From the NCBI GenBank assembly GCA_965140415.1, contig OZ223209.1, positions 4,360,986 through 4,424,985 of the forward strand: DNA of 64,000 bases. Direction: 5' to 3'. Source of the DNA: Myxococcota bacterium (GTDB taxonomy: Bacteria > Myxococcota_A > SURF-8). The first letter of the stretch is position 1. Each line of letters begins with the position of its first letter. The notes under the pieces are model-generated. The model saw nothing but the letters and a program-made list of their open reading frames with translations. It was not told the origin of the DNA and ran no database searches. Both the position numbers and the translations under genes were made by a program. This document shows, piece by piece, positions 12,410-31,869 of this stretch.

Positions 12410-14638
12410 CTAACGCCGTTTGTGCCAACGCCGGGATCGACTTCCAAGCCAACCACCTTTTTGCTGTTGCATCAATTCTCTAAGCTTCGTGGCGGCTCGC
12501 TCCTGGCTGATTTTCCCACTCAGCAAATCATTCGTGATGTTATCCGCCTGCACGGTTCGCCAGATGCTGGCCACGAAATCGAATAACATCTCGATTTGTC
12601 GCGCACCCCATAGCGCCGGAGACAAAGCCCGGTGCTCGTGTAAGCCTTTGGCCGCTTCCGAGTACACCCCATTCAAGCGATCATACAATTTTCGCAGAGC
12701 GGGCCGCAAAGGCTCCCAGGCGGCGCTGGTCTGATCCAGCAGACTTTCGATCTTCATCAGTGCGGCGTGGCTGTCCATCACACCATAGTCCTCAAACGAC
12801 ATCAACTGGATGATCGCATCCTGCCAGTCATCCGGATTCTCGGTATCAAAACGCCCCAGTTGGGTCAACACACGATCGTATGCCTGCCAACGATACACAA
12901 TCTCCAGACCCGGTCCTTTGATGTTCTGCATTCCCATGATTTTAGCATGATAGCCCGGCGGCACCTGACCCGCGATAAAGTGAATCAGCGGATCGCCCTT
13001 GATGGCGGAATCTCTTAGAACGACGACACTGCGTAAAACCTGCTCGACAAGGCGCTTACGATACTGGCGATTCAACTGTTCGATAGCGCCATTGGAAGCG
13101 CCTTTCTCTTCGAATAGCTGTTGCAAGTCCCTGGCGATTGAATCCATCACCAGATGTCTGGCGGCGGTTTCGGCAAGAAACGGAAGGCTTGCGGAACCGA
13201 CTGAAAATCGGAATTCCTTGTCCTGCAACAAAATGGACTCTACTTCCTGTAGCGAATGCCCCTTGATCTTTCTATGCTGCGCTTCACACCAGTTTTCCCA
13301 CTGCTCTTCGCTCCACTTACCGATGCGGTCGCTTTCGGGTAGTTGCTCAAACATCATCCGAATCGCAGTCAGAGCATCGGAATCCAGCCGCATGGCCGTG
13401 CATATCATTTCCAAACGTTTTTCAGCCCGTGGCCGTTCCCGCTCGGGATCGTTCTTGAATTCCGTAATGTCAATGAGCGCCCACTTTCCGTAGCGCAGTT
13501 TCAACTCGTTATTGATAAACCCACGCATACCGCGAACGTTCGATCCGACCACGATGTAACGATGGGCGAACACATCTTCAACGAGAATGCGGGCAAACAC
13601 CTGAGACCGGCTGATGCGATCGGCACGGTTATTGATCAAAGCCACCGCCCAACGATTTAGATCCCCTTCCTGCCCAATGCGTTCGAAACCGGTTCGTCTC
13701 CAATTGTTCATGAAACCGGCGCGTTCGTTGGCCGACATGCCATTAACGAACTGCAACCAGCGCCCGGAAACTTCGGCCTGCGGAAATACGCGCAGCACTC
13801 CTATTTCCGGCACGACCCGTTCGGTCATTTCCACCAGTGCCTGCTCGCGATCGATTCCCAACTCCTCCGCCAATCTCAACACCAATGCCACGTTGGCGGG
13901 ATGTTCCTCGTAAGGAAAGCGCTGCATCATCATGCGTGGCACCAATAAAGGATCGCGTTCATTGACCACCATCAACTCGCTATCCATACGCCGCGCCTCT
14001 TCCTTTAACAACGGAAGCATCTGCACTTCGGTCGTCAGCACTTTTCCCTTTTTCGGAATGAAGTGCGAGATCACCTGGGCGACATCGAAACCGCTTGGAC
14101 CTTGAATATCCTCGTGGTCGGGATAGGCATTGGTGATGGTGGTGTAATCATCGCGCATCCACTGGCGCTGGAGAATTTCGACATAACGTTGGTTTAATGC
14201 CATGCACTCCCACAAAAACACCTGGGAATTGCTCTTTGCCGCCAAAGACAACAGCTTTTCCTGTTCCCAAATGGAAGCCTTGTCGTAAGGTCGGAAGATG
14301 TAAAGCTCCAAAGGATCGCGTCCGGGCAGCGAACGAATGAACATGGCCGAGGAACCGGTGGTCTTGGCGACTACATGGCTATCCAGACTCGCGAAAAGCG
14401 CAGCTTTCAATCGCTCGGTGCCGCTTTTTCCCCGCGTTCCCCAACCACCGATCACCAATGGTACTTTTGCCCGACTTCTGTAAATCCTCTGAAATGCAAA
14501 GGAATGCCGAGCAAGAAAATAAAGTGCCACGAGTAACGTAAAGACCATCAAGCTGAAAATAAGATTACCGGTGGGCGACAGGAAGTAACTCAAATAGGGA
14601 CGAATGGCCAGTTCCAAGCTGGTGTATAGATCTTTCAC
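12410..14638 (-). CDS. PgsB/CapB-like amide ligase (Mur-ligase fold) with an N-terminal membrane anchor and a ~340-aa C-terminal extension
   Basis: GTG start within a GTGA overlap with the upstream stop. Blocks align by eye with remembered B. subtilis PgsB:
- GGWGTRGKSGTERL vs INGIRGKSTVTRL
- VAKTTGSSAMFI vs VGKTTGTDARMI
- WECMALNQRY vs SECMAVNPDY
- AYPDHEDIQGPS vs VLEDHMDVMGPT
- QFVNGMSANE vs HFVNGFAAND
- INNRADRISRSQ vs MNCRADRVDRTQ. Confidence 0.85.
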   Translation of the reverse strand: MKDLYTSLELAIRPYLSYFLSPTGNLIFSLMVFTLLVALYFLARHSFAFQRIYRSRAKVPLVIGGWGTRGKSGTERLKAALFASLDSHVVAKTTGSSAMFIRSLPGRDPLELYIFRPYDKASIWEQEKLLSLAAKSNSQVFLWECMALNQRYVEILQRQWMRDDYTTITNAYPDHEDIQGPSGFDVAQVISHFIPKKGKVLTTEVQMLPLLKEEARRMDSELMVVNERDPLLVPRMMMQRFPYEEHPANVALVLRLAEELGIDREQALVEMTERVVPEIGVLRVFPQAEVSGRWLQFVNGMSANERAGFMNNWRRTGFERIGQEGDLNRWAVALINNRADRISRSQVFARILVEDVFAHRYIVVGSNVRGMRGFINNELKLRYGKWALIDITEFKNDPERERPRAEKRLEMICTAMRLDSDALTAIRMMFEQLPESDRIGKWSEEQWENWCEAQHRKIKGHSLQEVESILLQDKEFRFSVGSASLPFLAETAARHLVMDSIARDLQQLFEEKGASNGAIEQLNRQYRKRLVEQVLRSVVVLRDSAIKGDPLIHFIAGQVPPGYHAKIMGMQNIKGPGLEIVYRWQAYDRVLTQLGRFDTENPDDWQDAIIQLMSFEDYGVMDSHAALMKIESLLDQTSAAWEPLRPALRKLYDRLNGVYSEAAKGLHEHRALSPALWGARQIEMLFDFVASIWRTVQADNITNDLLSGKISQERAATKLRELMQQQKGGWLGSRSRRWHKRR

Positions 14639-31092: not shown

Positions 31093-31869
31093 CTAATATT
31101 CACAGCAGCGAAAACCGATCCGTGGTCCGGAAAGGTCGCGATAGGTATCCGCTCCGAAATCGTAATCGCAGCGAAGCACATCCTCCACATTGGCGAAACT
31201 ACCGCCGCGTATCCGACAAGCACCCAACTCCCCGGCGCCGGTACTGCAAACCCCAGTCCATTCGATAACGTTGCCGCTCATATCCCACAGATGCTCTTTG
31301 CCTCCTTCGCAGGAGGTGAACGCGCCAACCGGAGAAGGCGCTTCCACACCCATCGAAAAGCCATTGCAGGCGAATGGATCGAATTCGTCCCCGTAAGGGT
31401 AGTTTAAACGTCGATTGTTCGAGCAGGCGAGATACCACATATCTTCTTCCGGCTCTTCCCATTCTCCCTTGCATAGTTCTTTACCGGCCCACTGGCAATA
31501 CGCCTGGGCATCGCACCAGTCCACACAGGTTGCCGGACGATCCCCGCGTTCTCCCTCCGGCCAGTCGCAAGTCGGCTCGAAGGTTTCTTTCCAGGAACAA
31601 TGCTCACTGAGCGGATCGATCTGGGGAGAGCTTTGCAGAAAGGCACGATACTGATCGCGTGTCACTTCCGTCGCATCGATGCTGAAAAACCCGAAGTCGA
31701 TCATGCGCCCGATATCTTCCGACGGAGGGTAATAGTAATCCTCCGGTTCATCCGGACAACCGGCCATACCGAAAGTCAGAACCAACACGGCAACGCCAAT
31801 CAAGACGCGCCAACACCAACTCTTGATTCTGCCGATTCCGCAATCCACTTTTACACGTGCGCTATCCAC
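31093..31869 (-). CDS. FGE-sulfatase (SUMF1/formylglycine-generating enzyme-like) domain lipoprotein
   Basis: Lipobox LTFGMAGC. Family motifs are DATEVTRDQYRAF, VDWCDAQAYCQWAGKELC, LWDMSGNVIEW, RGGSF and IGFRCC. The start is ambiguous: GTG 31869 or 31848, or the listed GTG 31977. Confidence 0.75.
   Translation of the reverse strand: MDSARVKVDCGIGRIKSWCWRVLIGVAVLVLTFGMAGCPDEPEDYYYPPSEDIGRMIDFGFFSIDATEVTRDQYRAFLQSSPQIDPLSEHCSWKETFEPTCDWPEGERGDRPATCVDWCDAQAYCQWAGKELCKGEWEEPEEDMWYLACSNNRRLNYPYGDEFDPFACNGFSMGVEAPSPVGAFTSCEGGKEHLWDMSGNVIEWTGVCSTGAGELGACRIRGGSFANVEDVLRCDYDFGADTYRDLSGPRIGFRCCEY

Follow-up and report, generated by a model that had tools for sequence, protein, structure and literature searches.

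A conserved gene cluster around PgsB- and CapC-type proteins as a candidate trans-envelope machine for polyamide synthesis and export in diderm bacteria

Poly-gamma-glutamate is known mainly as a capsule or slime polymer of Bacillus, where it is made by a four-protein complex. Its transport across the two membranes of a diderm cell has, to our knowledge, not been addressed so far. Here we describe a cluster of eight genes, numbered g1 (the FGE end) to g8 (the PgsB end), on the minus strand of a 64,000-nucleotide (nt) stretch from a Myxococcota bacterium (assembly GCA_965140415.1, contig OZ223209.1, positions 4,360,986 to 4,424,985; hereafter the window, whose own coordinates are used for the cluster). 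The cluster brings together a long PgsB/CapB-type ligase (g8) and a membrane protein with two CapC units (g4), a CHASE2 sensor (g3), two large envelope proteins (g5 and g6), a HEAT-repeat protein (g7) and two lipoproteins (g1 and g2). On balance, we favor the reading that it encodes a trans-envelope machine in which an amino acid, most probably glutamate joined by gamma-amide bonds, is polymerized and the resulting polyanionic chain is carried out of a diderm cell. The core of PgsB plus PgsC is of a known kind, and the architecture surrounding it appears to be new.

CapB/CapC pairs have been found in most phyla and are abundant in Planctomycetes, according to the available part of the CapsuleFinder survey (PMC5542703), whose matches could include clusters of the kind described here. 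Among Gram-negative bacteria, polyglutamate production is cited as having first been shown in Fusobacterium nucleatum (reference list of PMC4497714). A literature search, with subscription-only papers outside its scope, found no paper on the enlarged proteins, on g5 or g6, or on the architecture as a whole. Nor was a characterized pathway found that claims the gene set, and g5 and g6 lack families; such a pathway would have refuted an earlier reading of the DNA letters alone (hereafter the sequence-only reading).

The ligase and its CapC-type partner

The eight open reading frames (ORFs) of the sequence-only reading were all recovered at their positions, with the starts of g1 and g6 differing from those of the longest ORFs, and Pfam and NCBIfam bear out the proposed domain types for six of the eight (g1, g2, g3, g4, g7 and g8; Table 1). 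From g1 to g8, the intergenic distances are 24, 0, 6, -4, -22 (+20 with the start that gives g6 1,591 amino acids, aa), -7 and -4 nt, a spacing that confirms the tight packing of the last five genes. Because their stop and start codons overlap, the arrangement suggests that g4 to g8 might be translationally coupled. GC skew is negative throughout the eight-gene block. Promoter and terminator scans at the ends of the cluster and inside it gave no more sites than shuffled sequence; we infer co-transcription of the genes, as we do the identity and the export of the polymer.

Two lines of evidence identify the 742-aa g8 protein as PgsB-like. Against the equivalog model TIGR04012 it scores 217.6 bits, with g8 aa 46-376 aligned to profile positions 15-330 of 380, and it falls narrowly below the cut-off of 222.7 because an insertion breaks up the C-terminal part. 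In a direct comparison, authentic pXO2 CapB (B. anthracis capBCADE) matches g8 aa 35-373 with 30% identity over 336 aa (E 2e-37), and a profile from 63 long PgsB homologues scores the same CapB at 176 bits (E 3.6e-55). The ligase motifs common to the g8 family and pXO2 CapB are the P-loop GGWGTRGKSG, KTTG, ECMA, DHED..GP (DHxDxxGP), NG.SANE and NNRADR..RS (NxRxDR). By homology, g8 is an ATP-dependent, Mur-ligase-like amide ligase at the cytoplasmic face of the inner membrane. It had been described as an enlarged PgsB, and it is indeed longer; the extra length consists of an insertion of ~190 aa and a tail of ~150 aa, added to a CapB-like core that is itself complete. Neither g8 by itself nor its family profile had a meaningful PDB sequence match; the sole weak one, in the insertion, is a coiled-coil region, and the insertion is probably helical. 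A likeness between the QNIKGxG motif of g8 and the CapB C-terminal GNIHGAAEPL was noticed by eye only; the profile alignment stops short of it, and we treat the correspondence as unproven. The g7 protein has no hydrophobic segment by hydropathy. Many genomes encode its equivalent and the ligase as one chain, a HEAT-PgsB protein of 1,240-1,299 aa with the HEAT part at the N-terminal end.

The membrane partner g4 was proposed to be a double CapC, and both profile and pairwise comparisons agree with this. It scores 129.5 bits against PF14102 (cut-off 27) in two stretches, and pXO2 CapC aligns with it twice, at aa 18-157 and 206-354; against the equivalog model TIGR04011 it reaches 65.7, under the cut-off of 96.45. 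By homology, it supplies two membrane units of the PgsC/CapC type within a single chain, the counterpart of PgsC in the Bacillus synthetase. The notion of an enlarged PgsC holds for the two CapC repeats, but two thirds of the 1,057-aa protein form a presumably periplasmic region that is not CapC.

In an AlphaFold2 (AF2) model from 66 homologues (predicted local distance difference test, pLDDT, 86.6), the two helical membrane units are followed by two alpha/beta domains. Among the best Foldseek matches of g4 in the PDB are the poly-gamma-glutamate hydrolases of phage PM1 (21dc), YndL (5onj) and PghP (3a9l), with probabilities of 0.99-1.0 and target-normalized TM-scores of 0.44-0.53, and the best named match in a viral library is a phage poly-gamma-glutamate hydrolase (Bobb enzyme). 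Further matches are M14-like carboxypeptidases, CCP5, succinylglutamate desuccinylase and related enzymes, with glutamate-directed amidases and carboxypeptidases of this fold among them. A poly-gamma-glutamate-hydrolase-like fold is therefore probable for the tail domains as modeled; at the sequence level, g4 had no match to PF05908 at E<=0.01. Across the 66 homologues, the first metal-binding His is replaced by Ala, Arg or Tyr in domain 1 and mostly by Arg in domain 2, the second His is Arg wherever it could be aligned, and the acidic residue is retained as Glu. Because the metal-binding His residues have been replaced, mostly by Arg, the tail domains are likely pseudo-enzymes with a more basic pocket.

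The location of this tail can be deduced from its Bacillus relative. PhoA fusions in E. coli have mapped the PgsB C-terminus to the cytoplasm, whereas those of PgsC, PgsA and PgsE were periplasmic (PMC7490850). CapC residue 146 pairs with g4 residue 354, within the last membrane helix, and the last CapC-like helix of g4 ends at around aa 354-363. Since g4 aligns up to this helix with a protein whose C-terminus was mapped to the periplasm, its 690-aa tail should be periplasmic as well. The N-terminal and inter-repeat loops of g4 are net-negative, which fits an N-out, C-out unit; the positive-inside rule by itself does not fix the topology of g4, which is settled by homology to the PhoA-mapped PgsC. 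A periplasmic tail also agrees with the signal peptides found on stand-alone paralogues of its domains.

In other genomes, such a paralogue is encoded by a small gene of the cluster. Its ~300-aa product carries a signal peptide, is homologous to the second g4 tail domain and has the invariant residues His121, Asp125, Thr128, Arg151, Asp163, Gln190, His192, Ser212, His268, Glu270 and Arg276, among which the His, Asp, His and His-x-Glu set follows the pattern expected of a metal hydrolase of this fold. The family has no match in NCBIfam and no PDB sequence match, and in a profile search of the window for the small gene only g4 itself matched. Corallococcus loci (L003, L013, L015, L018, L019, L025, L028 and L064) carry a second hydrolase-fold paralogue of ~420 aa between the S53 and double-CapC genes, with a long low-complexity N-terminal region rich in Pro, Thr and Ser.

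Envelope proteins, gene order and distribution

The large partners g5 and g6 were said to lack a described counterpart, and no family could be assigned to either: both are without a match in Pfam and NCBIfam, their family profiles have no significant PDB sequence match, and in Pfam scans of individual homologues SPOR, OmpA and TPR matched sporadically, without a family common to all. The two proteins are related to each other, as an hhalign comparison of their families gave a probability of 94.5% (E 8e-8) and a shared module of ~360 aa. The N-terminus of g6 is signal-peptide-like, and its C-terminal end reads ...EWVSEW, with a terminal W. Because part of g5 is homologous to the N-terminal module of g6, each membrane has its own copy of the module, one thus tethered to the inner membrane (g5) and one to the outer membrane (g6).

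Downstream of this module, an AF2 model of g6 aa 780-1605 contains helical repeats, two beta-sandwiches and a barrel. Compared with the PDB by Foldseek, it has 230 matches at E<=1e-3, and nearly all of the best 50 are outer-membrane barrels, including OmpG (TMt 0.57-0.60), general porins, OprD, AlgE, FhaC and ushers. The signal peptide, the model with its 14-16 strands and the outer-membrane matches together argue, with moderate model confidence, for the beta-barrel-like C-terminus that had been suspected from the letters. In 11 loci g6 looks split, with a ~1,100-aa ORF in place of its N-terminal part, followed, where the flank allows, by a ~700-aa barrel ORF (L004/L080 of Legionella yabuuchiae, at 16495-21857, and L008, L012, L030, L041, L042, L052, L061, L065 and L081).

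The nature of g6 bears on the idea that a polymer is made but kept in the periplasm, for example to protect against osmotic stress, to buffer metals or to pad the envelope, with g5 and g6 acting as structural or retention factors. We regard this as quite improbable. It would suit a barrel that is small (the best match, OmpG, has 14 strands) and is followed by a conserved 30-aa tail, as well as pseudo-hydrolase domains that could just retain the polymer, and the channel role of g6 is a prediction. However, a narrow pore would be enough for a linear polyamide, helical repeats ahead of a C-terminal barrel resemble the exporters BcsC, PgaA, PelB and AlgK/AlgE (AlgE being among the fold matches of g6), and an outer-membrane protein of 1,450-1,950 aa that is kept in 45 of 50 loci would be costly for mere retention.

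Relatives of the cluster are widespread. In word-indexed searches, long PgsB proteins (700-1,300 aa) and double-CapC proteins of strikingly constant length (~1,050-1,090 aa) each numbered in the hundreds. When the g4 alignment was used to scan GTDB species, each represented by a single genome, double-CapC relatives were found in at least 572 species genomes, and HMMER over 1.84 billion representatives (50% identity clusters) found 757 clusters at E<=1e-30, the best 150 of which are nearly all full length. The carriers include Corallococcus and other Myxococcota; Methylococcaceae, Thiodiazotropha, Thiomargarita, Legionella yabuuchiae, Alteromonadaceae and Lysobacter in the Gammaproteobacteria; Thiobacillus and Ramlibacter in the Betaproteobacteria; Mariprofundus, Magnetococcus, Sulfurovum, Desulfobacteraceae, Geobacter and Candidatus Electrothrix in the Zetaproteobacteria, Campylobacterota, Desulfobacterota and others; and Planctomycetota, Spirochaetaceae (Spirochaetes), Acidobacteriota and Poribacteria.

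Gene order was determined by jackhmmer over the ORFs of 84 related loci, with counts restricted to loci that have enough flank. The canonical order is CHASE2 (~900 aa), double CapC (~1,080 aa), g5-like protein (~830 aa), the ~300-aa protein, g6-like protein (1,450-1,950 aa), HEAT protein and long PgsB. The gene immediately upstream of double CapC encodes a CHASE2 protein in 46 of 59 loci, and a g5 homologue directly follows double CapC in 60 of 65; the small gene is present in at least 44 of 56 loci and a g6 homologue in 45 of 50, with the HEAT gene adjoining it in 39 of 45. Fusions have joined g5 with the small gene and the HEAT protein with PgsB, and no other recurrent neighbor family was found around the related loci. 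Co-occurrence of the large proteins, for which a neighborhood comparison had been suggested, thus extends to dozens of loci with the same order in several phyla, and to two sister-clade contigs that correspond gene for gene.

Could the genes be chance neighbors with unrelated functions, only g4 and g8 cooperating as a minimal PgsBC? We find this very improbable. It is true that g1 and g2 are not conserved beyond one clade and Corallococcus, and that in Sorangium cellulosum (CP012670, L001) a HEAT gene and a gene for a 963-aa PgsB, at 8390-12892, have no double-CapC, g5 or g6 gene within 10 kb, which indicates that the module can be dispersed or partial in some genomes. However, the order g3-g4-g5-(small)-g6-g7-g8 recurs in at least eight phyla or classes, gene fusions (g5 with the small gene, g7 with g8) and overlapping coding regions occur within it, one domain of g4 has a paralogue in the small gene, and a module is common to g5 and g6.

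Homologues of CapA and CapD, of which the sequence-only reading saw none, are likewise lacking in searches of the 64-kb window with pXO2 queries (best tblastn E 0.53 for CapA and E > 2 for CapD). Among ~80 related loci, CapA has a homologue in one (L016) and CapD in none. The one locus, from a metagenome-assembled genome (MAG) labelled Rickettsiales, has an 802-aa ORF with a CapA/PgsA-like region (97-2505, plus strand; E 1.4e-25) upstream of CHASE2.

The clade of the window keeps the exact eight-gene order, in relatives that are 52-60% identical (L005, an uncultured Myxococcales MAG, and the metagenome contigs L086 and L087): FGE, S53, short CHASE2 (652-662 aa), double CapC, an 865-869-aa protein, a ~1,596-aa protein, HEAT and PgsB, with no small gene. 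In g3, the CHASE2 domain covers aa 45-298 and hydrophobic helices lie at aa 39-57, 279-297 and 317-335; the cytoplasmic region aligns with the GAF/PAS-like part of homologues and ends before HisKA/HATPase_c. HATPase_c is present in 9 of 24 g3 homologues and absent from g3, and short CHASE2 forms are also found in Legionella, L005, L060, L086 and L087. Because the sister-clade loci show the same gene set, the absence of both the small gene and the kinase domain reflects a loss characteristic of the clade and not damage.

The first two genes have a narrower distribution. The g2 protein combines a Pro-kumamolisin activation domain with a subtilase-fold catalytic domain, as in S53 peptidases, and contains ETTVD and GGTSLAAP, which we take to be the S53 catalytic residue motifs. 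An S53 gene occurs only in Corallococcus and the clade of the window (6 of 43 loci, plus L005 and L086), and an FGE gene in the g1 position only in L005 and L086. Weak NCBIfam matches of g1 to PvdO and to GldK/PorK, a type IX secretion system ring lipoprotein, hint at a structural rather than enzymatic role. A protease and a sensor had both been counted as partners of the machine; the sensor g3 belongs to the widespread module (g3-g8), but g1 and g2 are clade-specific additions, S53 being found in Corallococcus too. A strict replacement of the small gene by the S53 and FGE genes was considered and is not supported, as Corallococcus has S53 and the small gene together.

In the DNA around the cluster, an AcrB-type efflux operon of the resistance-nodulation-division (RND) family and a second pair of OEP and membrane-fusion genes confirm that the host is diderm. 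A second HEAT protein lies beside the cluster, ~1 kb upstream of g1, with a minus-strand ORF of 231 aa between the two. Two IS4-like transposase genes adjoin each other farther away, and a tRNA scan of the window found none.

Table 1. Positions of the cluster genes, their domains and motifs, and flanking genes in the window
Feature	Residues (aa)	Window position (nt)	Strand	Basis or remark
g1, FGE-sulfatase-fold lipoprotein, 294 aa		31093-31977	-	longest ORF; start at 31869 in the sequence-only reading; PF03781 E 1.6e-26; lipobox MAGC
g2, S53 sedolisin-type lipoprotein, 583 aa		29317-31068	-	Pro-kuma_activ E 7.6e-19; Peptidase_S8 E 2.8e-10; lipobox VLAC
g3, CHASE2 membrane sensor, 680 aa		27274-29316	-	CHASE2 PF05226 E 1.4e-23
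g4, double PgsC/CapC membrane protein with predicted periplasmic tail, 1,057 aa		24094-27267	-	Caps_synth_CapC PF14102 E 1.1e-37, two stretches
g4, CapC repeat 1	18-180	26728-27216	-	
g4, CapC repeat 2	203-363	26179-26661	-	
g4, putative pseudo-hydrolase domain 1	~385-640	25348-26115	-	alpha/beta in AF2 model
g4, putative pseudo-hydrolase domain 2	~660-935	24463-25290	-	alpha/beta in AF2 model
g4, small C-terminal domain	940-1057	24097-24450	-	
g5, inner-membrane-anchored protein, presumed periplasmic, 867 aa		21494-24097	-	hydropathy; no Pfam/NCBIfam match
g5, N-terminal hydrophobic helix, single	4-22			hydropathy
g5, module homologous to g6 N-terminal module	257-676	22070-23329	-	
g6, predicted secreted outer-membrane protein, 1,605 aa		16698-21515	-	1,591 aa from start 21473; no Pfam/NCBIfam match
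g6, N-terminal module homologous to g5	92-625 (1,591-aa numbering)	19599-21200	-	
g6, TPR-like paired helical repeats	806-1041	18393-19100	-	AF2 model
g6, two beta-sandwiches	1051-1257	17745-18365	-	AF2 model
g6, barrel, 14-16 long antiparallel strands	1308-1575	16791-17594	-	AF2 model
g7, cytoplasmic HEAT-repeat protein, 689 aa		14635-16704	-	HEAT_2 E 8e-8
g8, long PgsB/CapB-type amide ligase, 742 aa		12410-14638	-	TIGR04012 E 2.2e-64
g8, N-terminal hydrophobic helix	25-43			
g8, ligase core	46-376	13511-14503	-	
g8, insertion, ~190 aa	after 376			
g8, invariant C-terminal motif PPG...QNIKGxG	556-585	12884-12973	-	
g8, tail, ~150 aa	after PPG...QNIKGxG			
HEAT/PBS-lyase HEAT-like repeat protein, 722 aa		33041-35209	+	HEAT_2 E 1.4e-29
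RND efflux operon		43408-49128	-	AcrB-type pump 1,040 aa, membrane-fusion protein, OEP outer-membrane factor
Second OEP and membrane-fusion pair		53674-56162	-	
IS4-like transposase genes, two adjacent		50015-51217; 51418-52596	+	DUF4372 and DDE_Tnp_1
Flanking ORF, 1,021 aa		7736-10801	+	no Pfam family at E<=1e-3
Flanking ORF		6110-7099	-	no Pfam family at E<=1e-3
Flanking ORF		10761-11507	+	no Pfam family at E<=1e-3
Flanking ORF		11528-12229	-	no Pfam family at E<=1e-3
Flanking ORF		36133-37416	-	no Pfam family at E<=1e-3
Flanking ORF		39019-40440	-	no Pfam family at E<=1e-3

A proposed route across the envelope

We suggest that the proteins could act in the following way. In the cytoplasm, the HEAT repeats of g7 would scaffold or regulate the ligase, with which they form one polypeptide in many genomes, and g8, on the cytoplasmic side of the membrane, would extend a chain of gamma-glutamyl type. 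The chain would enter the periplasm via the CapC units of g4, where the Arg-substituted hydrolase-fold domains might hold it, binding the polymer instead of cutting it because their metal-binding His residues mostly became Arg. From the inner membrane (g5) to the outer membrane (g6), the shared modules and the repeats and sandwiches of g6 could then guide the chain through the periplasm as far as the g6 barrel. The secreted ~300-aa paralogue would, in most genomes, trim or clear the polymer, like BcsZ, AlgL and PelA in polysaccharide systems, and in the clade of the window the S53 peptidase and FGE-fold lipoproteins may take over periplasmic processing or be structural. The CHASE2 protein might couple the output to an extracellular signal, in a kinase form in most taxa and in a kinase-less form here. 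The central proposal of the sequence-only reading, an amide-linked polymer made at the inner membrane and crossing a Gram-negative envelope, is supported by the homology of the ligase and CapC units, the synteny across phyla, the g6 barrel, the predicted periplasmic location of the g4 tail and the hydrolase-like domains, the export itself being a step that we predict.

Several observations weigh against this route. In the HEAT-PgsB fusions P0015, P0027, P0059, P0036, P0047 and P0011, the P-loop is preceded at ~35 aa by a single helix of only moderate hydrophobicity, which follows a HEAT region of ~600 aa; there is no signal peptide and the domains on both sides are large, and the helix may be embedded without crossing the membrane, which blurs the coupling between ligase and CapC. 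The matches of g4 to hydrolases have TMt values of 0.42-0.53 and weak E-values (7e-3 to 0.11), which we attribute to the 1,057-aa multidomain query, and only 2 of 34 small-gene paralogues match PF05908, at a marginal E of 0.065. The AF2 model of g6 was built from five sequences and has a low overall pLDDT of 59, with barrel blocks mostly between 50 and 80. PgsA/CapA is not in the cluster; the available parts of two sources describe its requirement as disputed even in Bacillus (PMC5542703; PMC6029982). The window also lacks the small hydrolase-like gene and the kinase domain, so that the local version may differ or be reduced. Finally, g8 and g4 score under the PgsB and PgsC equivalog cut-offs, and the monomer could therefore be a different one.

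This last point leads to an explanation that we consider unlikely, in which the ligase chemistry is the same and the product is not: another amino acid or a mixed polyamide, or glutamyl chains placed on a lipid, protein or peptidoglycan carrier for display. Besides the scores below the cut-offs, it can draw on the low identity of g8 to CapB (only 30%) with its big insertion and tail, on partner proteins wholly unlike the Bacillus system, and on the SPOR or OmpA peptidoglycan-binding domains carried by some g6 homologues. However, all ligase motifs common to CapB and the family are conserved, the hydrolase-fold domains match poly-gamma-glutamate hydrolases with high Foldseek probability (0.99-1.0), the Arg substitutions suit the binding of a polycarboxylate, and no CapD-type anchoring transpeptidase is found in the window or the related loci.

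Export of a gamma-glutamyl chain thus remains the reading we prefer, and there is a substantial chance that the cluster represents a new class of trans-envelope secretion machine. It is possible, and we suggest this tentatively, that it is the first recognized diderm secretion pathway for an exopolymer other than a polysaccharide, namely a gamma-glutamyl-type polyamide, with its own exporter (g6), bridge (g5) and pseudo-enzyme domains that hold the substrate. In that case, capsules or matrices of a polyglutamate-like polymer would be widespread and overlooked in Gram-negative envelopes, with carriers that span methanotrophs, sulfur and iron oxidizers, cable bacteria, myxobacteria, planctomycetes and a Legionella species. 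The distribution, with at least 572 species genomes and 757 clusters, suggests unrecognized matrix or capsule material in ecologically important bacteria; databases label only the PgsB and PgsC genes, which hides the system. In any case, the cluster offers a concrete parts list for polymer export in diderms, including two families (g5 and g6) without a Pfam, NCBIfam or PDB sequence match, and structural studies of the synthetase could profit from a PgsC dimer that occurs naturally as a single chain and from the naturally occurring HEAT-PgsB fusions. Experiments are feasible, as Corallococcus species and Legionella yabuuchiae are cultivable carriers.

Comparison with known systems

The PGA loci of CapsuleFinder are defined by presence or absence of hidden Markov model (HMM) matches, and the available part of that survey describes no enlarged proteins, extra genes or outer-membrane route (PMC5542703). 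Closest in gene content is the PgsBCA(E)/CapBCADE system of Bacillus, with which the cluster shares a PgsB/CapB-type ligase with all common motifs and a PgsC/CapC membrane partner. As in PgsBCA(E), a hydrophobic helix lies right before the P-loop of the ligase, and polymerization is probably coupled to translocation. Unlike in Bacillus, PgsA/CapA, CapD and PgsE are lacking in the window, and a tandem pair of CapC units continues into ~690 aa of domains placed in the periplasm. The ligase is longer by an insertion of ~190 aa and a tail of ~150 aa, and fusions of it to HEAT repeats are frequent. Furthermore, four conserved partners (g5, g6, the CHASE2 sensor and the secreted hydrolase-like protein) are without a Bacillus counterpart, and the hosts are diderm.

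A second point of comparison is the family of zinc endo-hydrolases PghP/YndL (PghL; PF05908). The tail domains of g4 probably share their fold, as by homology would the secreted paralogue, which keeps the His, Asp, His and His-x-Glu residues. The sequence similarity is marginal, and the copies in g4 have lost the His residues and form part of a membrane protein. M14-like carboxypeptidases, N-formylglutamate amidohydrolase and others have this fold as well.

In overall design, the cluster recalls the synthase-dependent exopolysaccharide systems (BcsABZC, PgaABCD, Alg8/44/K/E/L and PelA-G). These differ in chemistry and ancestry: the cluster has an ATP-dependent amide ligase instead of a glycosyltransferase, so that its product would be a polyamide, and a CHASE2 sensor or kinase instead of a receptor for cyclic di-GMP, with no PilZ or GGDEF domain seen. 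No sequence homology to their components was found with Pfam and NCBIfam for the eight proteins or with Pfam for the homologue sets, and the likeness is architectural only. Within that limit, it extends over the whole envelope. BcsC, PgaA, PelB and AlgK/AlgE are outer-membrane exporters that combine helical repeats with a barrel, and the predicted exporter of the cluster, with helical repeats and a C-terminal barrel, follows the same plan (cf. BcsC, PgaA, PelB/C and AlgK/E). Translocation would likewise be coupled to a synthase at the inner membrane, where a periplasmic partner is also anchored (cf. BcsB and Alg44), a periplasmic hydrolase belongs to the operon (cf. BcsZ, AlgL, PelA and PgaB), and a dedicated signal input completes the resemblance.

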